DNA of 64,000 nucleotides, from the IMG/VR virus record IMGVR_UViG_3300002131_000090, positions 1-64,000 of that record; one strand, given 5' to 3'. Shown piece after piece: positions 7,455 through 64,000 of the stretch. The first letter of the stretch is position 1. Each line of letters opens with the position of its first letter. Source of the DNA: a virus. Below the pieces are notes generated by a model, which was not told the DNA's origin, searched no databases, and saw nothing but the letters and a program-made list of their open reading frames with translations. Both the position numbers and the translations under genes were made by a program.

Positions 7455-8733
7455 AAAACACGGTATTAATACCGACACATTCTGTTTTGCTCCATATGTA
7501 AATGTCGACCTAGATCAGTCTGGTGAAGTTTATAGTTGTTATAGAGGCAAAGACCCGTTAAGTAACTGGAAAGAATTACCGCTTGATGTTGAATTTAATA
7601 ATGAAAATTATAGAAATCTAAGACAAGGGTTATTTAATGGGCAAAAATCCAGTAACTGCAATGCATGTTGGGACGCTGAAGAACATAATAGTGCATCGCC
7701 AAGACAAATGTTTCTTGAACAGATGTCTAAATATTCAGATGATACAATAGAAGAAGTTATATCAAGTATAAAAAACAATCCTAAACAAGGTAATATTAAC
7801 GATCTAATTCGAGGAGAAATAAGAACCTCTTCGTTATGTAATTTAAAATGCTTACATTGTGGGCCACATTCGTCAACTCAATGGATTGCTCAATTAAAAG
7901 ATAAAGAAATATTTGATACTTTTAAAGAAACAGTAGGCGGATTAGATAGTACAATTACTAACGAAAACATACATGAAGTATTTAAACATACTCTAAATTC
8001 TATTTCTCCTTACACAACCAACATTAAAAAAGTTTTATCAAATACCAAAATACTACAATTTGCCGGCGGCGAACCGTTAATGGACCCTGACCATTTAAGC
8101 TGGCTAGACTATTTTGTTAATGTATCAAAAACTTCTAAAGACATTAGTTTACATTACAATACTAATCTTAATATTAATAATATTGAAAAATATTTTGAAC
8201 ATTGGAAGCAGTTTAATAATGTTATAATTAGAATAAGTATTGACAGTTCTCCAAGTTCATACGAATATTTTAGAAGAGGCGGAGATATTTTTTTAATAGA
8301 AACAAATATTAAAAAAATACAAAAAGAATTTGGTAACAAAATAACATTACAAGGATCAATAACATTTAATATGTTTGCCGCAATGGAATGGAAAGAAATT
8401 ACACATTGGTGGAATGTACATAATTTAGATTTTCATACTAGTTTAGTACGCAAACACCCTACGTCTGCAATATATTTACCAGATGACATTAAACGTGAAT
8501 GCCAGGAGGAAATGCAATGGTGTATAGATAACATATACGCATTTGTTGAATCTAATTTGCATAAAGAAAAATTTATAGATTATACAAACGATTGCATGAA
8601 CTATATGATGAACTCTACTAAGATAGGAAATTGTATGTCTGAAAAATCTATATCATATTTAAAAATGCTTGATAGAAAGTCAAATTTAAATATGTTAACC
8701 TATTACCCAAGATTAAAGGAATATTATAAATGA
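7429..8733 (+). CDS. Radical SAM protein with N-terminal auxiliary Cys cluster
   Basis: CNLKCLHC, AGGEPL, YNTN, SID; N-terminal C..P...SC...CNACW. Confidence 0.88.
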   Translation: MQSIIERLKKHGINTDTFCFAPYVNVDLDQSGEVYSCYRGKDPLSNWKELPLDVEFNNENYRNLRQGLFNGQKSSNCNACWDAEEHNSASPRQMFLEQMSKYSDDTIEEVISSIKNNPKQGNINDLIRGEIRTSSLCNLKCLHCGPHSSTQWIAQLKDKEIFDTFKETVGGLDSTITNENIHEVFKHTLNSISPYTTNIKKVLSNTKILQFAGGEPLMDPDHLSWLDYFVNVSKTSKDISLHYNTNLNINNIEKYFEHWKQFNNVIIRISIDSSPSSYEYFRRGGDIFLIETNIKKIQKEFGNKITLQGSITFNMFAAMEWKEITHWWNVHNLDFHTSLVRKHPTSAIYLPDDIKRECQEEMQWCIDNIYAFVESNLHKEKFIDYTNDCMNYMMNSTKIGNCMSEKSISYLKMLDRKSNLNMLTYYPRLKEYYK

Positions 8734-49612: not shown

Positions 49613-52486
49613 ATGGCTGAAAAAGAATATATCGTAAGTTTAAACAAAGACGTTGATTATGATGCATTTTGGAATCAAATCGAAAATGCTAGCGAAGATG
49701 ACGGATTTGTTCCAACTAGACGAGTCGACATTGTTAACAACAGAGATGGCAGTTTAAGAAGCTGCCATTACAGTTTAACAGACGAAGAAGCGGCAACACT
49801 AGCAAATGATCCTAGAGTCTACAGTGTAGAAATTCCACCAGATCAACGTGATGATATAGAAATTGGACACCACGCTGTACAAAGCGGTACTTGGACCAAA
49901 GACGGCACTATAAGAAGTACAGACTTAAACTGGGGCATGATACGAGGGGCTTATAGCGAAGATAAATGGAATGCTGCAACCAGTATTGCTGCTGAGTTTC
50001 CTTATGTATTAACAGGCAAAGGTGTTGACGTTGTTATACAGGACAGCGGACTAAGTGTTGATCATCCTGAATTCCTTATGGAAGATACTGCCGAATATAC
50101 AAGTACAGCAGTAGCAAGCGATAGTTCAAACGGAGCAGTGTTTGATAGAAGTTTAACAGTACACGGTATAAAAATTGTAGTAGCTGGAGCAGTGGGCGGA
50201 CAACTAACAGTTCCAGCTTTTTGGGCAGAAAAAACAGCAAAGGTTATCCAACTGTTAATTAGTCCAACAGGTACACATATTAATCTAACAGATCAAAAAA
50301 AACTGATAGCAACTCTAAAAGGTGACGCTGGCACAACACACGCTGGTGTACCCGCGGCTCAAAGGATTGGCTACGGAGGTGGTGACAGTTACGATCCTAA
50401 TTGGTTAACAGATGATGGTGCGGCACAGTACGCAGGATACACAGACTTTTTAGACAGTCATGCAGTTAATGACATGGTATGGTATTTAAATACATCAGGA
50501 CCATCACCTTCTACTAGTGATAGAGACATTGAAGAAATTATGGAACACTTGTTCCACACAATACATAACTTTGGTATTCCAGGAGCAGTGGGCGATAGTG
50601 CTACACAAGTTCCAATGGACATGCTACTTTTTATTATGCAAGAAAATCCTAGTTTCTCTTGGACAACGACAGCATTACATCTTGCTATGAAAGAAGCTAT
50701 TGACGCAGGGTTATATGACCCTAGTGGATACGCGACAGATTGGGCAACAGATTATGAAGCGGCAGTTGTAGCATATAAAGAGTACACATATTTGGTCAAC
50801 TGGTCAATGTGGGATATGAGTCAATTCTGGGATGGAGGAAGCCTTTCACCTGAATGGGATGACTCATTAAAAACACGAGCAGGTATGAAAGCTAATAACC
50901 CATTAGGTTATGCTTTGTTTATTAAATATTTCCAACCTGTTTTATCAAAACCTAGCTTTACTACACTCCAAGCAATATTTCAAGATAATGATGCTGGCGA
51001 TTCACAGTATCAAATAAGCAATTCTGGGTATTATAGAGTACAACAAATTGATTGGTACGAAGAAAGCAGTATAATCGGCACACAAAACGCTAACCATTAT
51101 AGAGACTATCACGGACACGGATCTCACTGTGCGGGCACTGTAGCGGGTCGTACAATGGGTTGGGCAAAGGATGCTGCTATATACAGTGTGAAAGTTAGCG
51201 GATTAGAAGGCACAGGCGATGCTACAGGTATTAGTATTACTAATTGCTTCGATGTTATTAAACTTTGGCACAGAAATAAACCCATAGATCCAGTAACAGG
51301 ATTTAAACGTCCTACTGTTGTTAATATGAGTTGGGGATATGGATTTTCACCCGGTACAGCAGACCCAACTACAGGTACGTTTAGAGGAACTCCGTGGACA
51401 TACGGACAACCTAGTTTTAGTACATCAAATGAAGTTTGGGCAAACGCAGGTATTCAGCCTGTCCGAGGGTCATCTAGATCGTTTAATAGTCGTGTTGGAT
51501 CAGTTGATATTGATTTAGAAGAATTAATCGACGAGGGTGTACACGTTTGTATTGCTGCCGGCAACAGTTATTATTATATTGCAAGAGAAGGCGACGACGA
51601 CTACGATAACAACGTAGTTGTTAGTGGATCAACACGATATTATCATAGAGGATCGAGCCCATATAGTACCAATGCATTTGCAGTAGGTAATATGGATATA
51701 ACGTATCAAGGTGGACTAGAACACAAAGCCGAGTCAAGTTGCACAGGACCTGGCGTAGACATATATGCTCCGGGTACAAGTATTACCAGTGTAGCCAGCA
51801 CAGACAAAGCAGGTGCTTGCGATTTAACAGATGGCACAGATGCTAGTGTCGCAACTGCAAATAGTCCATTAAATGCGTCTTACAAGCTGATGAAGATATC
51901 TGGTACTAGTATGGCATCGCCTAACGTAGCAGGTATGATTGCTACTATATTAGAAGCTAATCCAGGCATGACACCTGCAGAAATGAAAAAGTTTATACAC
52001 AATAACTCAACCAAAGGGTTGCTGTATGATGAGGCATTTACTATTGATAGACCTATAAATGTTGCTGTTACTAACAACGGAACATCAACTTGGGTTGTAA
52101 CAGGAGACTTTTCAGGCGAAAATGCTACATTTGGATGTCGAATAGGAGATACTATAAACATTATTAACAATGCAAGTTCTGCACATCCATTGTATATAAA
52201 AATATCACAAAATGTACCAGGTACTGGAGCTCAAGCGTTATATGTGACCAATGCAGGGTGCTACGGCGGCGAAATGCTTACGTGGGTTCCGTATGCAGCA
52301 GGTAGTTATTATTTTCAATGCGGAACACACAGTGGTATGATGGGTACAATTGTTGTTTCAGCAAACAATCCAGCTTGGTCAGATCAAGACGCAACCCTTG
52401 GCGGTCCAAATAGAATATTTAAAACACCGTTTAATCGAGATATAACAAGTAAATTTAATGTATCAGGAAACATAGATGTCAAATAA
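49613..52486 (+). CDS. S8 subtilase with large inserted domain and C-terminal cupredoxin-like domain
   Basis: Catalytic triad QDSG / HGSHCAG / GTSMASP; insert carries EHLFHTIH; HP...YYFQCGTHSGMMG. Confidence 0.88.
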   Translation: MAEKEYIVSLNKDVDYDAFWNQIENASEDDGFVPTRRVDIVNNRDGSLRSCHYSLTDEEAATLANDPRVYSVEIPPDQRDDIEIGHHAVQSGTWTKDGTIRSTDLNWGMIRGAYSEDKWNAATSIAAEFPYVLTGKGVDVVIQDSGLSVDHPEFLMEDTAEYTSTAVASDSSNGAVFDRSLTVHGIKIVVAGAVGGQLTVPAFWAEKTAKVIQLLISPTGTHINLTDQKKLIATLKGDAGTTHAGVPAAQRIGYGGGDSYDPNWLTDDGAAQYAGYTDFLDSHAVNDMVWYLNTSGPSPSTSDRDIEEIMEHLFHTIHNFGIPGAVGDSATQVPMDMLLFIMQENPSFSWTTTALHLAMKEAIDAGLYDPSGYATDWATDYEAAVVAYKEYTYLVNWSMWDMSQFWDGGSLSPEWDDSLKTRAGMKANNPLGYALFIKYFQPVLSKPSFTTLQAIFQDNDAGDSQYQISNSGYYRVQQIDWYEESSIIGTQNANHYRDYHGHGSHCAGTVAGRTMGWAKDAAIYSVKVSGLEGTGDATGISITNCFDVIKLWHRNKPIDPVTGFKRPTVVNMSWGYGFSPGTADPTTGTFRGTPWTYGQPSFSTSNEVWANAGIQPVRGSSRSFNSRVGSVDIDLEELIDEGVHVCIAAGNSYYYIAREGDDDYDNNVVVSGSTRYYHRGSSPYSTNAFAVGNMDITYQGGLEHKAESSCTGPGVDIYAPGTSITSVASTDKAGACDLTDGTDASVATANSPLNASYKLMKISGTSMASPNVAGMIATILEANPGMTPAEMKKFIHNNSTKGLLYDEAFTIDRPINVAVTNNGTSTWVVTGDFSGENATFGCRIGDTINIINNASSAHPLYIKISQNVPGTGAQALYVTNAGCYGGEMLTWVPYAAGSYYFQCGTHSGMMGTIVVSANNPAWSDQDATLGGPNRIFKTPFNRDITSKFNVSGNIDVK

Positions 52487-52489
52487 ATA

Positions 52490-52518
52490 TTGACTTTATT
52501 GCTTTATTGCTATATAAT
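52490..52518 (+). promoter_or_regulatory. Sigma70 promoter, probable leaderless transcript
   Basis: TTGACT-17-TATAAT, 6 nt before ATG 52525. Confidence 0.65.
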
Positions 52519-52524
52519 AATAAC

Positions 52525-53409
52525 ATGTTTCAATATACAAAAAATAATCATATAAAATGTTCGTTTTCAAGTGGCATTCTTAACCTTGAACACGGAAAAT
52601 GTAATTCGCATAAATCGTGGCGAGAAGAATGTAAAAGCGTAGCACAAGAGCTTTATGACTTACACGGTAACAAATTAGTTGTTACACTAAGTGGCGGGTT
52701 AGATAGCGAAGTAGTATTACACAGTTTTATTGCTAACGGAATTATTCCAAAGGTAGTTATACTTAGATATGAACGCAATTTAAATCTTCACGATATAAAC
52801 TATGCTTTACGTATATGTGCTGCTAGGCAAATATCACCTAAAATAGTTGACGTAAATGTTTCAGAGTTTTTTAGAACAGACTTATTAAACTATGCTAATA
52901 TTACAAAATGTAGTAGTCCTCAACTAAACTTGTTAATAAATAGTATCGACAATATAGACGGTATTCCTGTTATAGGAGCAGGCGAAAACTATCTTTCTCG
53001 TAAAGAAGGCAAAAAAGAAGTCTACGATTTAGAAGAAGCTAAGATAGCAGCAATTTATAAGTTTTATGAAAATAAACAACGTGAAATAATACCTGCGTTT
53101 TTTCAATATACTCCAGAATTAATGATTAGTTACTTACAAAAAGAAAGTATGTATCGCTGGGTAGAAACTGCTAAACAACAAAAATATATAAACAGTAAAA
53201 AAATTAAACCAAGTATTATTGCTGAAGACTTTGATATTGAACCTAGAGGAAAACTTACAGGGTTTGAACTTATAGACGAACTTGAAAGGCATCAACGATC
53301 TGTGCTAACTAATGAAAATTTAGGTGATGATGGAGAACAATGGACTAATTTTGAAGATTATATTAAAGAATTTGGTGTTGATTTATTAAGAGATATAAAC
53401 TATGTCTAA
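52525..53409 (+). CDS. PP-loop adenine nucleotide alpha-hydrolase (asparagine-synthase-like)
   Basis: LSGGLDSE; C-terminal R.KLTGFE. Confidence 0.72.
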   Translation: MFQYTKNNHIKCSFSSGILNLEHGKCNSHKSWREECKSVAQELYDLHGNKLVVTLSGGLDSEVVLHSFIANGIIPKVVILRYERNLNLHDINYALRICAARQISPKIVDVNVSEFFRTDLLNYANITKCSSPQLNLLINSIDNIDGIPVIGAGENYLSRKEGKKEVYDLEEAKIAAIYKFYENKQREIIPAFFQYTPELMISYLQKESMYRWVETAKQQKYINSKKIKPSIIAEDFDIEPRGKLTGFELIDELERHQRSVLTNENLGDDGEQWTNFEDYIKEFGVDLLRDINYV

Positions 53410-53938
53410 ACACAAACTTATTAAATTTTTAAATAAAAAAAATATTTCATTAGGATTAAGTAACAATACAACCGATCTACGTCCTGTAGAAAATGTAGGA
53501 TATGGAAGATTTGCTACACAAAATATAAACGAAGATGAAATCATTTATCGTGCAGGCGGTATGTGGATAACCGATGAAGAAAGAAATTGTTATGAACAAG
53601 ATTACTTCCATTTAGTTGAAGGATGTTGTTTTTTTCAAGGTGGATTAAAGTATTATCTTAATGGATGTCATAATCATAGTTGTGAACCTAATGCTTACGT
53701 ACAAGAAAATATTATACGTGCATTAAAAGATATTAAGAAAGATGAACAAATTACTATCGACTATGCTAGTTTTATTGATCACGGGTATACTATTTTAGCA
53801 GAGTGTAATTGCGGTAGCAACACATGTAGAAATCACATTACAGGTAATGACTGGCAGTTGTATAATCTACCATTAAAATATAACTATAGGGTTAGCGGTA
53901 GTATACTTAGAAAGTGGCTACTTTCTCAAAAAACTTAA
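53402..53938 (+). CDS. SET-domain methyltransferase with post-SET motif
   Basis: GYG.FA, NHSCEPN, ITIDY, CNCGSNTCR. Confidence 0.9.
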   Translation: MSKHKLIKFLNKKNISLGLSNNTTDLRPVENVGYGRFATQNINEDEIIYRAGGMWITDEERNCYEQDYFHLVEGCCFFQGGLKYYLNGCHNHSCEPNAYVQENIIRALKDIKKDEQITIDYASFIDHGYTILAECNCGSNTCRNHITGNDWQLYNLPLKYNYRVSGSILRKWLLSQKT

Positions 53939-54956
53939 TATAGTTTTTGGCATTGGCTGTAAACATTGGAACAAACAACAATACATCATTATGCTGCCTA
54001 ATTAAGTATCCTTCTTTTTGTAGTTCTCTACGAACATAAATTCCGTCATTAACTTTTATTCCAAAAACTAATCCACGATTAGTATAATCTAAATTGTATT
54101 TTTTTAACTGTGTTATAAATTGCTCCTGTGTATTTTTATTATTAACAGTATTTAATAACTCAATTGTTTTTAGTAAAGTTTGACAAGCAATAGGGTGTCC
54201 AGACATAGTATACCCATGCGAAAAAACACTGTCTGTATTTTTTATATAATTACCTATACTTTCATTTACCATCACAGCACTTAGAGGAAAAAGTCCGTTG
54301 GTTAGTCCTTTACTGGTTATAAGTATATCCGGTTTCCAATCAAAGCTATAGTCTGCTCTTCCAAGGCCGGTTACAGTTTCGTCAAATATTATATTAAAGT
54401 TGTATAGTTTTTTTAACTCAAATAACTGCTGTAACACTTCAGTATCAAACTCTATAACACCTTTTGTGACCATCATTGGTTCTATTAAAACTGCGCTTGT
54501 TTGGTTGTTTACAGCGTCTACAAGCGTCTTGTAGCTATCAAAAACTTGTGCTTGTGTGTTAGATCCATGATAAGCGTCTTTGTACGCTAGTACGTTAGAT
54601 TTACTGTTATAATACTTACTAATATAAATTGCACTATCAATAGCATCGCTGCCACTATGCCCAAAGAATACTCTATTATATCCAAAGTGTTCGCATATTG
54701 TTTTAGCAGCAAGTTCGGTAACATCGGTACTACTCCAAAAATGTGTAGGATAGAAATGTATATCAGTATTAAAAGAATCAGCATAACTAGGATTATTATA
54801 TCCGAAGTTTACATTCCATAATCCACTATTACAATCAAAGTATTGTTTACCGTCTTTATTGTAAACTATATCGTTGTTTCCTGAAACAAATATTTCAGGA
54901 TCTGTAAATCTACTATGATTAGTATACGAGAATATTTGATTAGACATTAAACTCAT
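53907..54956 (-). CDS. Class III PLP aminotransferase (omega-amine/putrescine type), shortened
   Basis: D..SGLW.VN.GY, SGSD, YHG, IEP, DE.VTG.GR, PD.....KG, HGYTMSGHP. Confidence 0.87.
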   Translation of the reverse strand: MSLMSNQIFSYTNHSRFTDPEIFVSGNNDIVYNKDGKQYFDCNSGLWNVNFGYNNPSYADSFNTDIHFYPTHFWSSTDVTELAAKTICEHFGYNRVFFGHSGSDAIDSAIYISKYYNSKSNVLAYKDAYHGSNTQAQVFDSYKTLVDAVNNQTSAVLIEPMMVTKGVIEFDTEVLQQLFELKKLYNFNIIFDETVTGLGRADYSFDWKPDILITSKGLTNGLFPLSAVMVNESIGNYIKNTDSVFSHGYTMSGHPIACQTLLKTIELLNTVNNKNTQEQFITQLKKYNLDYTNRGLVFGIKVNDGIYVRRELQKEGYLIRQHNDVLLFVPMFTANAKNYIKFFEKVATF

Positions 54957-55572
54957 CTATTGTATTTTCAATACAATTTCCTATTAAAAAGATAGTGTCG
55001 CACCCTTCTCCTGTTATAACACTATGCGTATATTTTGGATCAAATATAAATGCATCACCTTCGTTGATTATTAGCTTATTGTTGTCATAGGTAAATTCCG
55101 AATGTTTGTGATTTTTACTAATACATTGAACATATCTCAATGGACTATTTTTATCAACATGCATCGGTGTCTCGTGTGGCCCTTTATGAATACTATACCA
55201 CAGATACATAAAATTACGAGTTTTACAAGTACTATAGTATTTCTTTTTGTCGGCAATACTTTCATGACTAACACTATGAAGAGGCACAGTTTTATATCCG
55301 TTTTCAGCTAATACTGTACCATCGGCTCCTGTATGTAAAGTTGTTGTATATGCTGTTTTACCTAAAAATTTATAACTAGGCGTCCAGATATATTCCGCAG
55401 TGGTATTTTTTTCTTTGATGTTCTGATTCTCATCACTATATATAGTAATCATAATAAAGTCGTGTATTACACTGCTAAAAACTTTGTGCAGCTCATGATT
55501 AATTTGTGTATCAAATACGTGTTTAAAATAGATTGGATCAAACAGCGGCTTAATAAATTTTATATTGTTCAT
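54940..55572 (-). CDS. Cupin / 2OG-Fe(II) oxygenase-like protein
   Basis: P.HVD ... GDA.IFD....HSV. Confidence 0.65.
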   Translation of the reverse strand: MNNIKFIKPLFDPIYFKHVFDTQINHELHKVFSSVIHDFIMITIYSDENQNIKEKNTTAEYIWTPSYKFLGKTAYTTTLHTGADGTVLAENGYKTVPLHSVSHESIADKKKYYSTCKTRNFMYLWYSIHKGPHETPMHVDKNSPLRYVQCISKNHKHSEFTYDNNKLIINEGDAFIFDPKYTHSVITGEGCDTIFLIGNCIENTIDEFNV

Positions 55573-57335
55573 AGTTTAATAGGTACCTGACTATTTCTCT
55601 GATCTCCGTCTATTGGATACATCCAACTAGTGTTGTATGTCATATTTCCTGTAAGATCGTTGTGTTTTATTAATCCGAGGTGATACTTACCGATCCATTC
55701 AATATTTGATTTATAAACATAGTCAGGTACTATTCCAGAACATAGTGCATCTGTAGCTTCATGATGATTTAATCCAAAACTACGGAGTCTCGGATATGCC
55801 CAAAAACTTACATTATAGTCAGCATGTCTTTCAAACTGTGTTCGAGGATGGGTTTCCATTATAGTTTCCCATCTTAACGCAATTTCTTTAGCTTTAGTTA
55901 AATCCATAGTACCGTGTCTCCAATAGTATTCGGGATCCCATCTTACTTCTTGTATTCCAAATTTGTCAGACTTGTCACTAAAAGCATTGCTTGTACGTCC
56001 ACCAGCATCTGATATGAAAAGTATTTCGTATTGTGCTTTATCAATAACTTGTTGATTAAGTAACCAATCAGCAGTATCCATTAAACTTTCTTCAGTTTCG
56101 CCAGGAAGCCCTACTATAAAACTAGTAAGTATAAAGATTTCGTCTCCTGCCGTTTTGCGAATCCACTCTAGTATTCCTTTGATTTTTTCAGGGTCTAAAC
56201 CTTTACCGGCAATTTTTGCTGCTGTATGATTAAATGTTTCAACGCCAAGGAACATACCTCTACATCCCATGTCTAGCATTTTATCTAACATTTGTGGAAA
56301 TTTGTAAAACATATCCGGTCTAGTATAAGCAATCCACTCGATCTTAAACGGCAAGCTACTAATAACATCATGCATCATATTAATTTTTGCCATACTGTCA
56401 TTTACAGTGTCATCAGTTAATTGATATCCTGTAGTACCAAATGTTTTATAATTATAAATTAATTCTCTTCTTAAACATTCAGCACTTTTAATAACTGTTC
56501 CACTATGATCATAGAAACAGAACTTACATCCAAATCTACAACCTTTTGATATTTCTAATGGAAGCCATTCTCCCGGCTGTACACTATCTAACGGTAACCA
56601 TTTTGTTTGTGTAACTATTGCACCTTTACCTGCTAATGCCGGTTCGTTAATAAATGTCACTCCGTCTTTTATGCGTACTTGAGACGGATTTAATTTTCCG
56701 TTTAAAAAGTCAACAATTGTACTTTCGCTATATCCATGAAAAGCATAATCAACATAATCTATCATTGCTTTAGGCAATATCTTACCTATTTTGCTATGTA
56801 CAAAGTGCTGTTTATATATTGTATCTACTAACGCTCCGCCTATTATTATTTTTGCGTTTGGCGCACGACGTTTTAATTCCTTAAACCATTCGCAACATTC
56901 TTCATGACTAAAATGCCATAAATTAAATTTTCCTTGAGTAGGATTAAAAGGATTATTTAAAAACGTTAAACTTAAAGCAACATACTCAGTATCTGGTGTT
57001 ACTAACTGTTCAAAGAAATCAAAGAAGTTATCTAGTTTAGTAAAATAATCAAAAACTATTGCTTCGTACGTTGTGTGTTCTCTAATATTACTAGCTACAG
57101 TATAAGGCCCCATGTACCTAGTCCAGAAGTTGTACTTACTACTACCTAAATATTTGCCACCTACATAGTTAGTATTTTTAACTGATATCTCAAAACCTGT
57201 TTTGCTATTAACATCCTTGAAGGCACTGCGATACATGTCTTCACGTTCATCTTTTTCAAGAAAGTGCGATCTAAATTTTGTACCACCAGTTCCTCTTACA
57301 TCGTAAATGTCACTTAATATTATTATTCTACTCAT
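55569..57335 (-). CDS. Cobalamin-dependent-type radical SAM protein
   Basis: N-terminal B12-binding-like region (G.Y.VA, IIIGG), EISKGCRFGCKFC, DDT, GVET, FIVGLPGET. Confidence 0.87.
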   Translation of the reverse strand: MSRIIILSDIYDVRGTGGTKFRSHFLEKDEREDMYRSAFKDVNSKTGFEISVKNTNYVGGKYLGSSKYNFWTRYMGPYTVASNIREHTTYEAIVFDYFTKLDNFFDFFEQLVTPDTEYVALSLTFLNNPFNPTQGKFNLWHFSHEECCEWFKELKRRAPNAKIIIGGALVDTIYKQHFVHSKIGKILPKAMIDYVDYAFHGYSESTIVDFLNGKLNPSQVRIKDGVTFINEPALAGKGAIVTQTKWLPLDSVQPGEWLPLEISKGCRFGCKFCFYDHSGTVIKSAECLRRELIYNYKTFGTTGYQLTDDTVNDSMAKINMMHDVISSLPFKIEWIAYTRPDMFYKFPQMLDKMLDMGCRGMFLGVETFNHTAAKIAGKGLDPEKIKGILEWIRKTAGDEIFILTSFIVGLPGETEESLMDTADWLLNQQVIDKAQYEILFISDAGGRTSNAFSDKSDKFGIQEVRWDPEYYWRHGTMDLTKAKEIALRWETIMETHPRTQFERHADYNVSFWAYPRLRSFGLNHHEATDALCSGIVPDYVYKSNIEWIGKYHLGLIKHNDLTGNMTYNTSWMYPIDGDQRNSQVPIKL

Positions 57336-58866
57336 ATAAGTTATTTTTCCTCAAGTATTCATTTGCTATTTTTTTATAACTATCAGCGTGTTGTTTAATC
57401 CAAGTAGTATTATACTTATTAGCATTTATTAGTTCATTATGCGTAAATCCTAGGTTACTACATCTACTGTAACCCAAGTAGGATGTCATAATGCGTTTTT
57501 GCCAAGCAGGACTCTTTTGTGCTTCTTCTATAATATTTATCATAGCAGTTTTTGTCATGTCTCCGTTTTGCCATTCCTCGACATATATACCTTTATCATT
57601 AGGCTCAAGTATTACATCGTATCCGTATGTCTTAGGATCCTTTTGTATTTTACTATAATCAATGGTATATGCCTTGTTAGGATCATATCCACCTATGTAC
57701 AACGGAGTTATTTCCCAAGCATTGAGCCAAGGTTGTGATCCAATCCAGTCTACTAACGCTTGGCACGTTTGTAATGTTTCACCTGGCAGTCCTAAAATAA
57801 ATCCGCTGCCCATTACAATACTATCGCCCCAGCTATCTCTACATTTTTGTAAAGCACTTTCAATAATATTTTTACGTGTAACTTTACCTATCAACGGACC
57901 TACAGCATCAGTTACAGTTTCGATACCCCATTGAATACTACGACAACCGCTTTCGGATATCATGTTAATCATTTCAGGTTTTTGATACAGTAAGTCTAAT
58001 CGACCAAATCCTGTCCAAGTAATATCAAATGGTAAGCTAGTAAACACACGATGTATCATAGACATCTTTTCCATATTTTCATTTATTTGAAAATCTGTTA
58101 ACATGTAGTGAGTTGTGCCAAACTTATCGTGGTTTTCTAATAACACGTTGCGTAGATGCGTTTCATCTAATGTCCAACTGTTTACTGCTTTTTTAGGATA
58201 ATCACAAAACGCACACTTAAACGGGCAGCCTCTACTTATTTCTAGTGGTAGTGCTTCACCTGGAAATATAAAGTCGCTTTCGTCCCAATGGATTTTACTA
58301 AACTTAAACTCTTTCTCGGTTATACTTCCGTAATCAGATTCACTCTTAATCTTAAGAGGTACTGTTTTATTACTTTGCAAATCTGTAAGTAATCCAATAA
58401 TACTACGATCGGCCATTCCGCCTACCCAATAATCAACCATTGGATATCTTTTTTGTAGTGCTTGTTTTTGAGCAACTTTTTGTCCACCAACGACAATACG
58501 TATCTGAGGATGTTTATTTTTTGCGTAATCAAACCACTGTGTTATTTCATCTTGCGGAAACGGAAAATATACATTCCACATATTGCTTTTGCGTGTTCTA
58601 CTATCAGCGCTCCAATGTGTTTCCCAGTCTTCCGGCATTAGTGTACTGAAGTGTGTACTACTAAACCCTAGAAATACAGTGTCGTTACTTACATACAAGT
58701 CAATAGCACGTTTAAATCGTTCATAGTTAAAATGACTAAAGAAGTCTATAACTTTAACACAATAACCGTTTTCACGTAATCTACTAGCCACAGTATATGC
58801 GCCGGCATCTCGACCCCAGCCGATACTTCCATTACATTCTGTGAATAGTACTACATCATAATTCAT
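57328..58866 (-). CDS. Cobalamin-dependent-type radical SAM protein
   Basis: GAY.VA..LR..G..V.VID, IVVGG, EISRGCPFKCAFC, GIET, FILGLPGET. Confidence 0.88.
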   Translation of the reverse strand: MNYDVVLFTECNGSIGWGRDAGAYTVASRLRENGYCVKVIDFFSHFNYERFKRAIDLYVSNDTVFLGFSSTHFSTLMPEDWETHWSADSRTRKSNMWNVYFPFPQDEITQWFDYAKNKHPQIRIVVGGQKVAQKQALQKRYPMVDYWVGGMADRSIIGLLTDLQSNKTVPLKIKSESDYGSITEKEFKFSKIHWDESDFIFPGEALPLEISRGCPFKCAFCDYPKKAVNSWTLDETHLRNVLLENHDKFGTTHYMLTDFQINENMEKMSMIHRVFTSLPFDITWTGFGRLDLLYQKPEMINMISESGCRSIQWGIETVTDAVGPLIGKVTRKNIIESALQKCRDSWGDSIVMGSGFILGLPGETLQTCQALVDWIGSQPWLNAWEITPLYIGGYDPNKAYTIDYSKIQKDPKTYGYDVILEPNDKGIYVEEWQNGDMTKTAMINIIEEAQKSPAWQKRIMTSYLGYSRCSNLGFTHNELINANKYNTTWIKQHADSYKKIANEYLRKNNLYE

Positions 58867-59306
58867 AATTCTTTAATCACGTAACAATTTAATTCACTAG
58901 TTTCAGTTTTAAAGAAGTCACTTGTTTGTTCAAACCCGGCATTTAAATAAGTTTTTAACGCTGTTTTTCTCGGTAGACTCCAACAATACTTTTTATTTTC
59001 TTTAACCGCTAACTGTATTGTATATTCCAATAATAGTTTGCCTATATTATTATTTCTATATTCAGGCATTACATACAACCCTCTACTTCTATAATGTATT
59101 CTACTAGTAGCATGTCCACTATTAACACCTACTACAGTGTTATCAATTATATATCCAAAAAACGTAGGGACGTAATTTTTTAATATGCCTTTATATGCAA
59201 TATCATTATAACGCATAGTACTCATAGGCATTATAATAGCACGATTGGGCCAGAGATATTTCTGCCAAAATTCATAAACTGTTTCATAGTCAAGTTCCTT
59301 AATCAT
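58863..59306 (-). CDS. GNAT acetyltransferase
   Basis: LYV.PEYR..NIG..LL; A...Y...GF. Confidence 0.85.
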   Translation of the reverse strand: MIKELDYETVYEFWQKYLWPNRAIIMPMSTMRYNDIAYKGILKNYVPTFFGYIIDNTVVGVNSGHATSRIHYRSRGLYVMPEYRNNNIGKLLLEYTIQLAVKENKKYCWSLPRKTALKTYLNAGFEQTSDFFKTETSELNCYVIKEL

Positions 59307-60300
59307 ATTGATCTCCTACAATAACGTGTTTTGGAACTAGATATTGATAAATTTTATTTGCACCTTGATTAAATGTATTTCCGCTTGCACCTACTCCACT
59401 ATGAGGCATTTCGATCGGAGTAGTCATAGGCTTATTTACAAATATATTTCCCCAACGAGCGTGTTGTGATACAAATCTTTGTGTTTTTAACTCCGTTGTA
59501 TATAGGTGTAACCCTAATCTATTTGGAAGTTGATTTATTTGCTTTATTAACTCTTGTAGATTATCGTATTGACTCATAGTTGCTTCTGGTCTGAAGTGAT
59601 CAATGTTTGTGAGTTGTTGTTCTTTGACACAATTTAGATTTTCAATTAACTGCGCAAACAAATTACGTTTACAAAAAATGTGTTTAGGACTGGTACAATC
59701 GGCGCCGCCATTATATTTAATACTCCAATCTAGGCTGTTAGCAATAAAACTAATATTGCCGTCATTAACAATAGCAACACTTGCTCCACCTATATCAGCA
59801 ATTACATCATTATGATGTTGTTTAAAAAAATCTGCCGTTGTTTTACTACCAGTAATATCAATAAAGTCATATATGCTAAAGTCAACAGTGTCAACTACAT
59901 TAACTTGTACTTTATTTTTCCAATTAGAAAATATAAATGGTACACTTCCTTTGTTTTTAGGATTTAACTTTACATCAATAGTACAACCAGCAGCAATAGC
60001 CGGAGCAATCTTCCACATAGCAATAACTAATGGATAATTCCACGGTACAACTCCTAGACAATGACCTTTTGGCTCATAACGCATGCTACTAGTACAAGTG
60101 TTATAATACTCATCTTGCGGAGGTGCTGTTATTGTTCGGGAAACACCAGCATAAAAATTGCAGATATCAATTGCAGTATTTACATCAAAATCTGCGTTGT
60201 TTTTAAAGTCAGTTGTTTCGAGCTTAACTATTTTTTTAAAGTTATCTTGTATAAACTTAGATAAAGAGAAAAGAGTATTTTGACGATCTTGTGGTTTCAT
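59299..60300 (-). CDS. Aldehyde dehydrogenase, PatD (4-aminobutanal dehydrogenase)-like, shortened
   Basis: PWNYPL..A.WK.APA.AAG, TGS, YNGGADCT, EMPHSG. Confidence 0.8.
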   Translation of the reverse strand: MKPQDRQNTLFSLSKFIQDNFKKIVKLETTDFKNNADFDVNTAIDICNFYAGVSRTITAPPQDEYYNTCTSSMRYEPKGHCLGVVPWNYPLVIAMWKIAPAIAAGCTIDVKLNPKNKGSVPFIFSNWKNKVQVNVVDTVDFSIYDFIDITGSKTTADFFKQHHNDVIADIGGASVAIVNDGNISFIANSLDWSIKYNGGADCTSPKHIFCKRNLFAQLIENLNCVKEQQLTNIDHFRPEATMSQYDNLQELIKQINQLPNRLGLHLYTTELKTQRFVSQHARWGNIFVNKPMTTPIEMPHSGVGASGNTFNQGANKIYQYLVPKHVIVGDQYD

Positions 60301-60305
60301 AACTT

Positions 60306-60334
60306 ACTATACTATACATTTTTACAGTTGTCAA
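60306..60334 (-). promoter_or_regulatory. Sigma70 promoter, probable leaderless transcript
   Basis: Minus strand TTGACA-17-TATAGT, 5 nt before ATG 60300. Confidence 0.65.
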
Positions 60335-60355
60335 GTTTTTAAATAATTATTTGTA

Positions 60356-60928
60356 TCAAAGGATTACTGCAACTAAATGAATTCTATCTTCTTTACTAGC
60401 ATTAAATGCAGTATGAAGTAATACTGTATTTGTCCAATACCAGTTATTTAATTCTAAATATTTTATTTCATTTTCAATAACCATAAAACACCCGTCTTGA
60501 GTCTTAACAGGGTAATGAATTCTGGTTGAATCATCTCTATGCCAGGACAAGCAAGTTTTTGATTTAGATTTCATCAAACGCACTCGACCTAATTTGTACT
60601 TATTACACAATTGCGTATATACATCTTCAAAAAGAGTATTTTTAAACTGAGAACACAATATTGAAAAGTCTTGTTCGGTATATTTTACTTTATATTCTGG
60701 TATTTCAAAAGACTCATTTCCGTATTCATCTGTTATTGTTTTTGAATTATTCCAATCTAACACTAAACTGCCGGTGCCTAGTAAATAGTTGTCAGGATTT
60801 TGTTCTGTAGTATTAATACAAATCTGATTTTCTTTAGTCCATTCTATTGTTTTATTTTCGATAAGTTTGTTGAGTTCGGAATATAAATCGTATATTGGTA
60901 AATTATCTAAATTTTTAAAATTGTTCAT
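60356..60928 (-). CDS. AspH-like 2OG-Fe(II) oxygenase
   Basis: GRVRLM, WHRD, RIHYP..T, HTAFN....RIHLV. Confidence 0.8.
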   Translation of the reverse strand: MNNFKNLDNLPIYDLYSELNKLIENKTIEWTKENQICINTTEQNPDNYLLGTGSLVLDWNNSKTITDEYGNESFEIPEYKVKYTEQDFSILCSQFKNTLFEDVYTQLCNKYKLGRVRLMKSKSKTCLSWHRDDSTRIHYPVKTQDGCFMVIENEIKYLELNNWYWTNTVLLHTAFNASKEDRIHLVAVIL

Positions 60929-60993
60929 CTAACATGTTCTCCGTTAATTTTTTAAATTTTTATTTTTTTATTCTATATAGTTTAGCTATCAAA

Positions 60994-61767
60994 TTACTTT
61001 AAATAATGAGTAATGCAAAGTCTGTTTACATATCCTCGTTTAAATTTATTATACTTCTTGTTATGATCTAATCCAAAAATTACTGTATCACTAGGAATTA
61101 TGCCTAATTCATTGCATATTTCTATTTGCTTTTGTCTATATTTTTTAAATGTATCATCTGGACCTAATGTATTAATCAGATCATAGTGTATTTTAGCACT
61201 GGATAATAGTTGATAATCCCATTCTTTGTACACTGAAACAGGGTATGTGTCTACAGTATAAATTTTACCTACACGATAATATCCAGTACCAAATGTTTTA
61301 CTTAAACTAAATGCAACAGTATGAATATTTTTATAAAGAGTAAAATCAAAATTGACGTTGGAGCAAATACCAAAGAATGCACAATCAACAAATATAGGTT
61401 TATTAAATGTATCAGCATACGCTAATTTTTCGTGAGCACTCATTCCATCAGCACTAAACGGATGGCTTACTATAATACAATCTGCTGCTTTAAGATTTTT
61501 TGTTAGTCGTTTTTTAGGTAATACTACTTCGTGATACGGATATTCGCCTTCAAAAATGCCTATTTTATTATAGATTGCATAAGTTTGATTAAAAGCATCT
61601 GTTATTCCCGAAACTATGTAGCTATCTTTTGGAAGTCCTTGTACTTTAAAATTAGACTTAAATATCCAATTATCAAAGTCTTGAGAAAAATTATGAAAAG
61701 ATTCCATATCATCTTTAAATTTAGCAATAGGTAATGCAGCTTTTGTTATTAGATCTAAATTATACAT
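60994..61767 (-). CDS. Fold-type I PLP-dependent enzyme (decarboxylase/aminotransferase-like), compact
   Basis: VDCAF, FSLSK.F.....RVG. Confidence 0.75.
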   Translation of the reverse strand: MYNLDLITKAALPIAKFKDDMESFHNFSQDFDNWIFKSNFKVQGLPKDSYIVSGITDAFNQTYAIYNKIGIFEGEYPYHEVVLPKKRLTKNLKAADCIIVSHPFSADGMSAHEKLAYADTFNKPIFVDCAFFGICSNVNFDFTLYKNIHTVAFSLSKTFGTGYYRVGKIYTVDTYPVSVYKEWDYQLLSSAKIHYDLINTLGPDDTFKKYRQKQIEICNELGIIPSDTVIFGLDHNKKYNKFKRGYVNRLCITHYLK

Positions 61768-62785
61768 AGCTATCTGGGCCTCCCTTACGTTTTAAATCTA
61801 GTGTTACACAATGTAACCCGCTATCCCAAAAATATTTATGTCTAAAATTAAACGGAATTCCTTCAATGCCATTTGCTTTAAGCTGCGCATATACGTCTGC
61901 ATCATATCCATTGGTAATAACTGTGTGTTCATCAAGACTGATAACATTAATATCAAATACAGTTTCGTCTACGTAACCAATCCAATGCTGTAACCATTCT
62001 TGTACTGTACTTTTATAAAAATGTTGGCTTTTTATTTTGTGAAAATACTCAGGTAATTCTTTTGTTTTAGCTTGAATGACGGTCCACTTTTTCATTGCCT
62101 TAGGAATATGTTTTTTGTTATAGCACATGACTACACCAGGTTTAAGTAATGCTAGTTTACCATCAGCATGTCCTACTGCTGGAATTTCAACCCAATGAAC
62201 ATCTCTATCAATGTTACGTTTAACCCAATCTAATCCAGCCTTTGTTCCTTTGCCCCAAGTTGTATCATCGTTGTATGGTCTTGTATGTAATAAAGTATCG
62301 CCTGCTTTAAGAACACATGCAGCATGGAACATTATTTGACCTTCCATTTTTTTATATTTTCGATAGTAGGAGTTTAGCAAGGGCTTAGGCATATTGATAT
62401 AGTTTCTTCCCTCTGCATATTTTTTAAGCATAATATCTAAGAAGTAATCGTGTTCTGTATAACGATTACAGTCGCCGCCGGCAGTGCCTAATATAGTATT
62501 GCCATAAACAATGTGAAAGTCACGTGGGCAAATAGCAGGATAAGGATAAGCTGACTGCCAGGTTCTGTGCTGTTCTGCTATTAGAGGAAAATCTCGAGGC
62601 CTATGCACTTTAACATCTGCACTTTTAAACAAATTAGATAATTTTTGGAAATCTTCTTCTGTTTCTTCTAATATTTTACCTAATCCATCAACAAATTCTT
62701 GATCGTCAAATTGTTTTAAAACATCTATATTATATGCTTTACCTACAATAACTTCTTCTAGTTTATCCCATTCTGTATAAATCAT
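61760..62785 (-). CDS. Amidinotransferase (glycine/inosamine amidinotransferase family)
   Basis: EWD.LEEVIVG, CPRD, HADG, D.N..SLD, SGLHC.TLDL.R. Confidence 0.88.
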   Translation of the reverse strand: MIYTEWDKLEEVIVGKAYNIDVLKQFDDQEFVDGLGKILEETEEDFQKLSNLFKSADVKVHRPRDFPLIAEQHRTWQSAYPYPAICPRDFHIVYGNTILGTAGGDCNRYTEHDYFLDIMLKKYAEGRNYINMPKPLLNSYYRKYKKMEGQIMFHAACVLKAGDTLLHTRPYNDDTTWGKGTKAGLDWVKRNIDRDVHWVEIPAVGHADGKLALLKPGVVMCYNKKHIPKAMKKWTVIQAKTKELPEYFHKIKSQHFYKSTVQEWLQHWIGYVDETVFDINVISLDEHTVITNGYDADVYAQLKANGIEGIPFNFRHKYFWDSGLHCVTLDLKRKGGPDSYV

Positions 62786-62936
62786 TTATGTTCCTATAAT
62801 TAAATTTATAATAATTGTTAGGCTAATTATTATAATAATTTGTATTTTTTTTAAATAAGTTTTATTGCAGGTTTACGTTTTGTTATTTTACTATCAAAAC
62901 TGCTTACACAACTTTTAGTAATATATAAAAATACCT

Positions 62937-64000
62937 TTATTCTAAATTTTTTGCTACATAGTTTTCTATAAACTGTTTTGTTTTATCTAACAATAATTCA
63001 TCCTTAAAATCTTTTTCGCGGAGTTCTAATAAATCTTTCATATTACAACGTAGTGTTGTACTAAATTCTCCCAGTTGAAATCCTGCAATTTTTCTATATT
63101 TGTAGGATCTATTATTATTATCTTTTGCTATCTTCATTAATTTAGTATGTACTAAGTCACCATTTGTCCAGTTAACAAAGTTATCATCAGTAAACTTGTA
63201 TCCGTATTTTTCATAGTTTTTTTCAAATTCACTTACCCATTGGTGTTTATTAATAACATTAATAGGATTTATATAAAGAGCCCAGTAATACCAACAACTC
63301 ATATCGTTGTCTATCATCCATTGTAAATCTATTTCTTCTTGTTCACCGGACCATCCCGGAAGTCCAACAATCATACCCATCCACCAGTTAGTTTTTCCTT
63401 TCCATCGGGTTTTTAACTCTAATAGAAATTCTTTAGCATACTGGCCGTTCCAACCTTTTCCTATTGCTTTTGAACCTTGTGCTTGAAAACTTTCAATACC
63501 AAAGAATGCGCTGCGTAAACCCGATTCGGGTAGTAAATCTATCATTTCTGGGTATGTTGCTAACAGATCAATTCTTATATAAGCAATGTACTCTAATTCA
63601 AAAGGTAACGATTTGCTAATACGATAAATCATTTGTACTTTATCCAAACTTTCATTAAGTGTATCATCACTAAAGTAATACTTTTTAATACCAAATCTTT
63701 CATAGTTTTGTATTAGTTCAGTTCTTATATCATTTTCACTTCGAATATTAGTTCCTTTTTTACGACCAGTTAACGGAAATTGACAAAACTTACATTTAAA
63801 AATACACCCTCTACTTATTTCAATACTTAGTGTTTCATAGGGTTGAATATAGTCGTCATTGCTATATACTTTTACAAAGTTTTGTATATCAAATTTTGGT
63901 CTTATTTCAATTTGCCTTGACAAACTATCAAGCATTGCTAATGTTTCGTCTTCGGCAAACTGATGTATACGTATCCAATCATTATCCATTATAGGAGACG
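62937..64000 (-). CDS. Cobalamin-type radical SAM protein, N-terminus beyond the window edge
   Basis: EISRGCIFKCKFC, DDT.N, GIES, IVGLP; frame stays open to position 64000. Confidence 0.85.
   Translation of the reverse strand, partial: SPIMDNDWIRIHQFAEDETLAMLDSLSRQIEIRPKFDIQNFVKVYSNDDYIQPYETLSIEISRGCIFKCKFCQFPLTGRKKGTNIRSENDIRTELIQNYERFGIKKYYFSDDTLNESLDKVQMIYRISKSLPFELEYIAYIRIDLLATYPEMIDLLPESGLRSAFFGIESFQAQGSKAIGKGWNGQYAKEFLLELKTRWKGKTNWWMGMIVGLPGWSGEQEEIDLQWMIDNDMSCWYYWALYINPINVINKHQWVSEFEKNYEKYGYKFTDDNFVNWTNGDLVHTKLMKIAKDNNNRSYKYRKIAGFQLGEFSTTLRCNMKDLLELREKDFKDELLLDKTKQFIENYVAKNLE

Follow-up and report, generated by a model that had tools for sequence, protein, structure and literature searches.

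The first 64,000 nucleotides of the IMG/VR virus record IMGVR_UViG_3300002131_000090, hereafter the window, end in a block of 12 enzyme genes with which a much longer island of enzyme genes (~46 kb) comes to its distal end, inside the structural region of a giant phage and between two tail-fibre modules. The block resolves into a conserved module of six to ten genes, syntenic at 46-92% amino acid identity in at least nine diverged phage contigs, and an independent cassette, variable among relatives, in which the genes of an amidinotransferase and of a minimal pyridoxal phosphate (PLP) enzyme lie between the third class-B-type radical S-adenosylmethionine (rSAM) gene and the PF05118 oxygenase gene. 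This differs from the original prediction, made from the sequence alone, in which the block was a biosynthetic-type cluster of at least 12 enzyme genes; it is not a self-contained 12-gene pathway but one end of an island with many rSAM enzymes and GT-A-fold transferases. The reading tentatively favoured here, at rather less than even confidence, is that a cationic, heavily tailored, sugar- or amino-acid-derived decoration is made in the cytoplasm and transferred to fibre or other surface proteins of the virion.

Conserved module and variable cassette

The gene order of the module starts from a core rSAM gene and continues, after an interval, with a miniaturised aldehyde dehydrogenase (mini-ALDH), a GNAT N-acetyltransferase, two class-B-type rSAM proteins, an AspH-like oxygenase, a class-III aminotransferase, the convergent pair of SET methyltransferase and PP-loop protein, and an S8 subtilase-domain protein; it is kept at 48-93% amino acid identity in seven contigs (L075-L077, L079, L082, L084 and L087). 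L085 and L086, which are more distant, have neither the ALDH nor the AspH-like protein, and their S8 gene does not adjoin the module, but GNAT, both rSAM enzymes, the aminotransferase, SET and the PP-loop protein are retained at 46-70%. The genes do not scatter independently among relatives, and this core recurs in at least nine diverged contigs. The SET and PP-loop genes belong to the enzyme module and not to the fibre operon, an assignment that is new here. In a sample of 52 IMG/VR loci, defined by an ortholog or paralog of one gene of the N_Twi rSAM family described below, the window genes seemed non-conserved, and the module emerged through searches from the mini-ALDH and a class-B rSAM. 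The 52 loci share a set of anchor genes, 53-92% identical (the core rSAM at 64352-65464, 62-92%; two N_Twi genes; the rSAM at 80843-81910; an 89-aa protein; and a methyltransferase-like gene), between which the genes vary.

Part of the module occurs outside phages. When 185,579 species genomes were scanned with a class-B rSAM alignment, the three best matches were full-length proteins of Bdellovibrionales metagenome-assembled genomes (MAGs), 46-52% identical, with a PP-loop gene (31%), a GNAT gene (38%) and, in one of them, a SET gene (32%) within a few kb of the rSAM gene. The neighbours of these genes are cellular (GMP reductase, a leucine-rich repeat protein, an Ig-domain protein and a group II intron), and the sharing might stem from an exchange of genes with predatory bacteria, or even from these being connected to the phage as hosts. 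The three MAG contigs (L088, CBDCNX010000002.1; L089; L090) have a G+C content of 37-38%, close to the 30-34% of the island, and in L088 a group II intron reverse transcriptase lies beside the rSAM gene. A reading in terms of purine chemistry, raised by the GMP reductase beside the Bdellovibrionales homologs, was rejected: the phage contig carries no IMPDH or GMPR gene, and GMP reductase is probably a housekeeping neighbour.

The cassette consists of a pentein-superfamily amidinotransferase of 341 aa (61760..62785, minus strand) and a minimal fold-type-I PLP enzyme of 257 aa (60994..61767, minus strand). Pfam, including PF02274, gave no match for the amidinotransferase, the assignment coming from PDB matches to HsvA (9e-20, residues 2-341), StrB1 (6e-18), SxtG (4e-17) and AGAT (6e-15), which together range from 9e-20 to 1e-14, from the retained catalytic C-terminal His-Cys (GLHC aligned with GSFHC), and from tblastn matches to phage genes annotated as glycine amidinotransferase; its dN/dS is 0.08. 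The 257-aa protein, without any Pfam or NCBIfam match, carries the fold-type-I signature SLSKxxGxxxxRVG and the motifs SHPFSADG, VDCAFF and SLSKTFGTGYYRVG, with weak PDB matches to 1-aminocyclopropane-1-carboxylate synthase over the region of the PLP lysine. Second copies of both genes lie further along the contig (amidinotransferase at 72167-73240, 42% identity; mini-PLP enzyme at 69927-70883, 26%). Orthologs of the amidinotransferase are found at 61-74% identity in L071-L074 and are missing from L075-L087, and orthologs of the mini-PLP enzyme at 61% identity are listed for L071 and L085. In L071 and L072 the two genes stand together beside the core rSAM, in L073 and L074 the amidinotransferase is without nearby rSAM genes, and the pair is missing from nine relatives that retain the rest of the module. 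No meaningful direct repeats were found at the cassette borders within 52-64 kb. The originally proposed single cluster with guanidino chemistry is thus upheld only in part: the amidinotransferase is genuine, but guanidination is not a core function and is an optional add-on, because the cassette is separable from the conserved module.

Layout of the block and authenticity of its junction

As originally predicted, the 12 enzyme genes, ten of them on the minus strand, directly follow two virion-type genes, with all open reading frames (ORFs) in place, and the enzyme classes then named all hold, with qualifications, by profile, PDB, motif or fold evidence. The left border is a fibre-like virion protein (47560..49602, plus strand; Mtd_N, E 5e-11; E1_FCCH, E 1.4e-8) rich in Thr, Ala, Gly and Ser. 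It is followed by the S8 subtilase-domain protein of virion type (49613..52486, plus strand; PF00082, E 1.2e-27; phrog_9158 and phrog_3677), whose gene adjoins the PP-loop gene here and in six of the eight diverged relatives examined. The PP-loop and SET genes come directly after this pair on the plus strand and overlap by 8 nt, the SET gene being translationally coupled to the PP-loop gene. The ten minus-strand genes overlap by 1-17 nt or are separated by three gaps of 55-151 nt, with no predicted terminator among them; over the 12 kb from 52000 to 64000, no intrinsic terminator-like site was found (4.1 expected), and a sigma-70 scan was no better than shuffles. In the same interval, the G+C content is 0.30-0.34, vs 0.35-0.41 elsewhere.

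The contig whose first 64 kb make up the window is linear and 146,632 bp long, and CheckV estimates its completeness at 41%. A T4-type DNA polymerase, a gp46-like SbcC, a baseplate hub and a portal place the phage in the T4 superfamily, the portal being 47-51% identical to those of Atu_ph07, PA5oct and fHe-Yen9-04. The genome size of the source phage is estimated at ~350 kb. Close relatives measure 343-347 kb, and a more remote one has a complete genome of 344 kb that carries terminal repeats. The source is an abundant uncultured giant phage of the Baltic: the exact proteins recur in 87-191 blocks of a public assembly collection, the SET protein letter for letter in 178. A megablast search with the 11.5-kb block against 50,697 phage records returned zero matches. 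The order fibre, S8, PP-loop, SET and enzymes is kept at 99.6-99.99% nucleotide identity in at least six assemblies, from different Baltic Sea studies and from JGI samples. Since the identical junction between virion and enzyme genes recurs in at least six independent assemblies, the contig is not chimeric, and the mis-joined host contig that the original prediction had left as a possibility is excluded. A full-length gene of the thymidylate synthase family (216-1082, plus strand, 330 bits) lies at the other end of the window; in L035 its ortholog is at most 10 kb from the island end, so that the genomes are rearranged relative to one another.

Catalytic motifs are kept in all 12 enzyme genes, and the genes are under purifying selection. 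Variation among the six assemblies (11 codon variants, all within one gene) is too small to gauge selection, and divergent orthologs were therefore taken; of the 13 genes compared pairwise in this way, 12 have dN/dS values of 0.04-0.27, which are rough since dS is saturated, and for the remaining one, the AspH-like cupin gene, no estimate could be obtained.

Enzymes of the block

The PP-loop protein (52507..53409, plus strand), a putative adenylating ATP pyrophosphatase with an SGGLDS motif, was considered as a QueC enzyme and this identity was rejected. The QueC profile match (24 bits) is confined to positions 1-73 of 210, only the ATP-binding third; the score against TIGR00364 is 21 bits, under the cut-off of 150, and covers profile positions 2-70 only; and the protein has no C-terminal Cys cluster that would correspond to the zinc-binding Cys motif of QueC. 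Its nearest Atlas clusters are 85-100% viral, which places it in a phage-dominated family. Orthologs are 55-66% identical in phage relatives and 31% in Bdellovibrionales, and dN/dS is 0.23; fused forms were looked for and none was found, which is weak evidence. The SET protein (53402..53938, plus strand, 178 aa; PF00856, E 5e-13; orthologs 53-65% identical) has the motifs NHSCEPN and ITIDY and the post-SET CNCGSNTC (CxCxxxxC). Its PDB matches are to MLL1 (E 2e-6) and to BurB (E 2e-5), a SET-domain S-methyltransferase of free methionine (PMC12542666); BurB (180 aa) aligns through the NHSCxPN, xDY and post-SET CxCGxxxCR..ITG segments. Because an enzyme of free methionine aligns about as well as MLL1, the SET domain is no argument for a protein substrate.

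The three class-B-type rSAM proteins, all encoded on the minus strand, are putative C-methyltransferases with a possible B12 domain, mutually paralogous at 26-37% identity, and each has a CxxxCxxC motif. The first (55569..57335; PF04055, E 9e-16; CRFGCKFC; orthologs 63-93%) scores 94 bits against the PhpK family TIGR04479, vs a cut-off of 600. The second (57328..58866; PF04055, E 4e-12; CPFKCAFC; dN/dS 0.09) is 28% identical to the first and has orthologs at 68-78% in 10 IMG/VR contigs, besides those of the three Bdellovibrionales MAGs. The third (62937..64352, 471 aa, extending 352 bases past the window end; PF04055, E 6e-14; CIFKCKFC) has orthologs at 74-75% in L079, L082, L084 and L087. The cobalamin domain PF02310 is matched in one of the three, the second, at an E value of 0.0024, under the cut-off, and the class-B NCBIfam models reach the N-terminal domain of these proteins with scores far under their cut-offs, the PhpK family being the best, so the use of B12 by the three enzymes is inferred. 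Sequence searches of the PDB with the core rSAM (64352-65464) and with one class-B rSAM were uninformative. A phosphonate pathway by the logic of PhpK, Fom3, HEPD and PhnY, which a PhpK-like rSAM together with a cupin, an ALDH, a GNAT and an aminotransferase might suggest, was also considered; the phosphoenolpyruvate mutase PF13714 was absent from this partial contig, from the complete 344-kb relative and from a 93%-complete relative, both of them distant, and such a pathway is now only remotely possible.

Several of the enzymes are systematically miniaturised, namely the ALDH, the class-III aminotransferase and the fold-type-I PLP protein, and since diverged phages have kept these shortened forms, they presumably still function as minimal scaffolds. 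The aminotransferase (53907..54956, minus strand, 349 aa), of class III (omega-type), matches PF00202 (E 1.5e-40) and retains the DExxTG and SKG motifs, including the PLP lysine; it is ~55 residues shorter than 6io1, with ~55-100 residues lost overall. Its best NCBIfam match, a daptide aminotransferase with 162 bits (vs a cut-off of 450), is only slightly ahead of ArgD and BioA, and its orthologs are 46-68% identical. The mini-ALDH (59299..60300, minus strand, 333 aa; PF00171, E 1.4e-38), of the gamma-aminobutyraldehyde/betaine-aldehyde type, has PRK13473 and E. coli YdcW (1wnb) as its top matches, with 4-trimethylaminobutyraldehyde and betaine-aldehyde dehydrogenases also among those in the PDB. 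Relative to YdcW, ~150 residues are gone in three segments, the catalytic Cys in GxDCT is retained and ELGG is replaced by DIGG. The family comprises ~20 clusters of 316-336 aa at 57-73% identity, beyond which come the 481-aa cellular gamma-aminobutyraldehyde/1-pyrroline dehydrogenases at 25-31%, and the miniature form is a phage speciality. A pattern scan of viral contigs with the mini-ALDH returned no matches, though the protein search gave those ~20 ortholog clusters.

Two oxygenases of the Fe(II)/2-oxoglutarate (2OG) type are encoded, both on the minus strand. The larger (54940..55572, 210 aa) has only a faint cupin match by sequence, with HxD...H conserved in the alignment. In its AlphaFold2 model (pLDDT 82.4), the top Foldseek match is the catalytic domain of human AspH (E 7e-5, TM 0.40), so that this orphan, from a rare family with only 8 matches among 1.84 billion representatives, may be regarded, by fold only, as an AspH-like enzyme with a double-stranded beta-helix. 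The smaller (60356..60928, 190 aa) belongs to the Asp/Arg-hydroxylase family by its match to PF05118 (E 8e-8), has HxD...H in its sequence, and has orthologs at 38-54% identity in many relatives. The GNAT N-acetyltransferase (58863..59306, minus strand; PF13508, E 7e-9; PF00583, E 5e-8) has phage orthologs that are 49-76% identical, the value for Bdellovibrionales being 38%.

The 46-kb island

The minus-strand run extends to ~99 kb of the contig, giving an island of 52.5-99 kb, and 13 of the 15 PF04055 matches on the contig fall between 56 and 95 kb. Ten proteins of the contig score 212-417 bits (cut-off 170) against NF033640 (N_Twi_rSAM), with a Cys-rich, twitch-like domain ahead of the CxxxCxxC core, and their nearest Atlas clusters are 90-100% viral; the three class-B-type proteins of the block are not members. 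A literature search on NF033640 found no paper, and the family has no characterised member. The only member inside the window, counted as an eleventh N_Twi rSAM (7429-8733, plus strand, 239 bits), lies ~45 kb from the island, among early-type genes, and is 43% identical to the island paralog 76989-78308. Among cultured phages, KVP40-like Vibrio phages carry a small cluster related to N_Twi, through which the family might be open to laboratory study; in Vibrio phage K566 (L012, OZ196521.1 161548-167037) it comprises three annotated rSAM genes and hypothetical genes.

Besides the rSAM genes, the island carries a nucleoside diphosphate (NDP)-sugar epimerase/dehydratase (91.9-92.9 kb), an FkbM methyltransferase and a 2OG oxygenase of the prolyl 4-hydroxylase type. 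A conserved anchor family of ~225 aa has no Pfam match, an invariant DxD and a predicted GT-A fold (pLDDT 91), with structural matches to B4GALNT1, ThuS/SunS and WrtF (Z 10-12), to the PBCV-1 capsid glycosyltransferase A64R and Mimivirus R699 (Z 9.6-9.9), and also to GtrB, ArnC and TarP. IspD-type nucleotidyltransferases have the same fold and similar scores, so that sugar-nucleotide-dependent transferase is the safe label for this family. No transmembrane-like segment was found in any island protein, and Pfam gave no significant family for ten further island proteins (83.8-98 kb). On the right, the island is bounded by three fibre paralogs with Collar domains, beyond which come a 4639-aa ORF and baseplate hub genes, all co-oriented with the island; the 4639-aa ORF (107141-121060, minus strand), which is followed by one of 1152 aa, stands between the fibre paralogs and the hub genes. 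The only plus-strand gene within the minus-strand island (65536-66516, 326 aa) is of the nitroreductase family (PF00881, E 9e-6), with shorter paralogs in L071, L079 and L084; it has no NCBIfam match, so it is not recognised as BluB. A 35-aa mini-ORF (82159-82266, minus strand), right after a sulfotransferase-like gene, has matches in 13 relatives, the reason being that its sequence repeats the C-terminal end found in orthologs of the gene upstream.

Proposed function and alternative explanations

The following chemistry is a fair reading of the enzyme classes originally named: methylation, hydroxylation, transamination, aldehyde oxidation, N-acetylation and amidination of a substrate of the amino-acid, omega-amine or amino-sugar type. 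In the reading favoured here, the stretch would lie at the distal end of a tailoring island that is hypervariable and linked to the fibres, and whose enzymes build and decorate a non-standard sugar- or amino-acid-derived group. Because all island enzymes are soluble, this chemistry would take place in the cytoplasm of the infected cell. The class-B rSAM proteins would carry out C-methylation, the class-III aminotransferase and the mini-ALDH the interconversion of amine, aldehyde and acid, GNAT N-acetylation, the two AspH-like oxygenases hydroxylation, SET N- or S-methylation, and the PP-loop protein the ATP-dependent activation of a carbonyl or carboxylate; in this lineage, the amidinotransferase and the mini-PLP enzyme may convert a keto or amino position into a guanidino group. 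The GT-A-fold transferases would then pass the group to an acceptor, most likely the phage's own fibre or other virion-surface proteins, and the decoration would diversify or protect the host-recognition apparatus. The analysis shows the gene content, the intactness of the motifs, the conservation of the module, the selection, the extent of the island, the GT-A fold, the solubility and the place between fibre modules; the sequence of the steps, the kind of substrate, the transfer and the acceptor are inferred. The GT-A transferases, the NDP-sugar enzyme, the solubility of the proteins, the position between fibre modules and the cassette-wise variation together point to a tailored, glycan-type decoration made in the cytoplasm, and the island is co-oriented with the baseplate and fibre block. 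In favour of this reading are also the cyanophage S-SCSM2R, in which the homologous amidinotransferase adjoins KdsA, KdsB, a glycosyltransferase and 2OG oxygenases and was detected, like a 2OG oxygenase, in the proteome of purified virions (PMC12801897), and the published description of this kind of island as a host recognition cluster (HRC; PMC7029224).

Several observations weigh against this reading. None of the proteins was identified as the acceptor, the window holds no glycosyltransferase and the block no NDP-sugar enzyme, and no window enzyme is tied by sequence to a sugar substrate, the best matches being generic families or enzymes acting on polyamines and omega-amines (HsvA, YdcW/PatD, omega-transaminases). 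The link to fibres is not constant either: the small N_Twi rSAM cluster of KVP40-like Vibrio phages is not beside annotated fibre genes, the PP-loop/SET pair in L085 and L086 lacks the following S8 protein, and the flanks of the partial module in Bdellovibrionales show no recognised fibre genes. The T4 late-promoter word TATAAATA is depleted, not enriched, in the window (3 observed vs 11.7 expected) and does not occur ahead of island genes. In the cyanophage S-SCSM2R, the detection of an amidinotransferase and one 2OG oxygenase in the purified-virion proteome comes from a distant phage, and its authors doubt a structural role (PMC12801897).

Modified nucleotide-sugars or groups of the lipid A or lipopolysaccharide (LPS) type might instead enter the assembly of the host's O-antigen, capsule or LPS, for example in superinfection exclusion. 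The AspH family includes the lipid A hydroxylase LpxO, GtrB, ArnC and TarP are among the GT-A matches, the rSAM cluster of Vibrio phage K566 has a PagP-like gene in its vicinity, and the S-SCSM2R amidinotransferase stands beside KdsA and KdsB. Such remodelling is also the published hypothesis for the HRC islands and glycosyltransferases of marine T4-like phages (PMC7029224). The island, however, holds no membrane protein, flippase, polymerase or polyprenyl-phosphate transferase, its position in the structural block of an apparently lytic giant phage would leave a late surface change little time, and the same module occurs in Bdellovibrionales without phage context, which makes envelope remodelling unlikely. 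The direct hypermodification of side chains in a virion or host protein, by a logic resembling that of diphthamide or of peptides made on the ribosome and modified after translation (RiPPs) and without a sugar, would suit the canonical post-SET motif with MLL1 as nearest match, the two AspH-type oxygenases, the best NCBIfam match of the aminotransferase, a daptide RiPP enzyme, and the peptide glycosyltransferases SunS and ThuS among the GT-A matches. Class-B rSAM enzymes also methylate protein residues in methyl-coenzyme M reductase and proteusins, and the PP-loop enzyme Dph6 amidates diphthine. Nevertheless, the daptide score is marginally above those of ArgD and BioA, BurB matches the SET protein about as well as MLL1 does, RRE or PqqD domains were not seen in Pfam scans, and the amidinotransferase, the ALDH and the NDP-sugar enzymes are better suited to small substrates. 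Among 506 small ORFs (20-75 aa) in 52-100.5 kb, screened for a gene of a precursor peptide, there was no conserved free-standing one, the only candidate being the C-terminus copy at 82159-82266, and protein hypermodification is accordingly considered improbable.

A free small metabolite, an onium or guanidino acid made from an amino acid by a logic like that of dimethylsulfoniopropionate (DMSP) or carnitine synthesis, could serve as an osmolyte, a signal or an antibiotic-like compound. The enzymes of carnitine synthesis are SET, 2OG hydroxylase, PLP enzyme, trimethylaminobutyraldehyde dehydrogenase and 2OG hydroxylase; the ALDH matches to 4-trimethylaminobutyraldehyde and betaine-aldehyde dehydrogenases, and the polyamine enzyme HsvA as nearest match of the amidinotransferase, fit such a product. 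The set of the BurB pathway (PMC12542666), that is SET, a class-III aminotransferase, an ALDH resembling betaine-aldehyde dehydrogenase or PatD and a fold-type-I PLP enzyme, is also present in the window, and the authors of the cyanophage study speak of antibiotic synthesis genes (PMC12801897). Yet the ALDH and the PLP enzyme do not occur in L085 and L086 or in the Bdellovibrionales versions, which retain rSAM, PP-loop and GNAT. No gene for transport or resistance was found, the SET protein does not resemble BurB more closely than histone SET domains, and the three class-B rSAM proteins and the embedding in a GT-A/N_Twi island are left unexplained. An amino-acid-derived onium or guanidino acid, free or ligated by the PP-loop protein, is kept as a live alternative, its free form being doubtful. 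Equally doubtful is a more specific version, in which the module makes a methylated, hydroxylated onium or guanidinium acid that the PP-loop protein ligates to an rSAM-tailored fibre glycan, shared with a surface apparatus of Bdellovibrionales; if true, this would be an undescribed class of post-translational decoration of virions. The attachment of the group to phage DNA, for example as a cationic base acting against restriction, or to tRNA, was part of the original prediction and finds no support. PP-loop enzymes often act on nucleobases, known thymidine hypermodification pathways employ rSAM, PLP and acetyltransferase enzymes, and amino and guanidino groups would neutralise DNA charge. However, the PP-loop protein, which is not QueC, matches just the ATP-binding third and lacks the Cys motif, a DNA transglycosylase, kinase or DNA-binding domain was not seen in the island, and the genes lie among late structural genes, with GT-A transferases and an NDP-sugar enzyme, and are shared with Bdellovibrionales chromosomes, all of which makes a nucleic-acid target very improbable.

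A very abundant aquatic phage lineage devotes about one third of its 146-kb contig to soluble tailoring enzymes, and the enzyme list is resolved into testable units, namely the module, the detachable guanidination cassette and the GT-A anchor genes. If the fibres are indeed decorated, this would represent a new layer of host-range determination in the arms races between marine phages and their hosts, and would supply new rSAM chemistry together with ALDH and aminotransferase scaffolds of unusually small size; should the outcome be a free metabolite or an altered host surface, it would be a new kind of auxiliary metabolism.

Comparison with known systems

The enzyme mix, which had been thought untypical of phages, has precedents in the fibre-linked rSAM islands of marine T4-like phages (PMC7029224) and in the cyanophage set (PMC12801897). 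The HRC of pelagimyophages and cyanomyophages is a 34-45 kb, non-syntenic island in the structural region, bordered by VrlC and the neck protein gp14, with tail fibres, many genes of glycosyltransferase or LPS type and rSAM cassettes that vary between close relatives, and an Asp/Asn beta-hydroxylase is core to the phages that have it (Zaragoza-Solas et al. 2020, PMC7029224). The flanking fibres, the position inside the structural region, the cassette-wise variation and the glycosyltransferase and sugar genes are all found in the present island. The HRC has, however, been described by gene categories only, without a pathway, module or product, and the SET/PP-loop/class-B rSAM module and a load of 15 rSAM proteins are not mentioned in that paper; by its portal, moreover, the phage studied here is a ~350-kb relative of Atu_ph07, PA5oct and Yen9-04 and not a pelagimyophage.

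The tailoring of aminoglycosides and streptidine employs the same enzyme classes, with StrB1 as amidinotransferase, GenK and GenD1 as class-B rSAM C-methylases, GenB and NeoB as class-III aminotransferases, BtrN as a twitch dehydrogenase and KanJ as a 2OG oxygenase. The logic is likewise comparable, an alcohol being converted through a ketone or aldehyde to an amine and a guanidine, with C-methylation of unactivated carbons, and StrB1 is the second-best solved match of the phage amidinotransferase. The differences are that the matches are at the superfamily level only, that the phage-borne enzymes are miniaturised, that no resistance or export genes are present, and that a cyclitol synthase was not seen here, though none was looked for. 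As for viral precedents, in PBCV-1 capsid glycosylation (A64R) and the fibril glycan clusters of Mimivirus, soluble GT-A enzymes and clade-specific rare-sugar pathways decorate the particle, and both A64R and R699 are among the structural matches of the GT-A family of the island. These are eukaryotic giant viruses, and we know of no rSAM enzymes in their glycan clusters; for the present phage, virion glycosylation is a prediction.

In the bacterial DMSP methylation pathway, BurB, BurI, BurD and BurE correspond to MSMT, SMMDC, DMSPAAT and DMSPADH (PMC12542666). A SET methyltransferase, a PLP enzyme, an aminotransferase and an aldehyde dehydrogenase are all in the window, with the 257-aa PLP protein as a putative decarboxylase; against the likeness, the similarity to BurB is no better than that to MLL1, the ALDH and the PLP enzyme are missing in L085 and L086, and the class-B rSAM proteins, the PP-loop protein and GNAT have no role in that pathway. 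The T4-like cyanophage S-SCSM2R, with its antibiotic synthesis genes and ORF266-269 (PMC12801897), likewise carries an amidinotransferase, an rSAM, a PLP enzyme and 2OG oxygenases beside sugar genes: the amidinotransferase is 24% identical to that of the present phage (E 4e-15) and adjoins KdsA, KdsB, a glycosyltransferase and 2OG oxygenases. That cluster is small and scattered, and is without class-B rSAM, SET or PP-loop genes. In summary, this kind of island is known in outline, from the HRC and from the S-SCSM2R genes, and none has been characterised; newly recognised here are the split of the window between a module that is conserved and a cassette that is mobile, the families of miniaturised ALDHs and aminotransferases, the AspH-like fold that the 210-aa orphan adopts in its model, and the sharing of the module with Bdellovibrionales.

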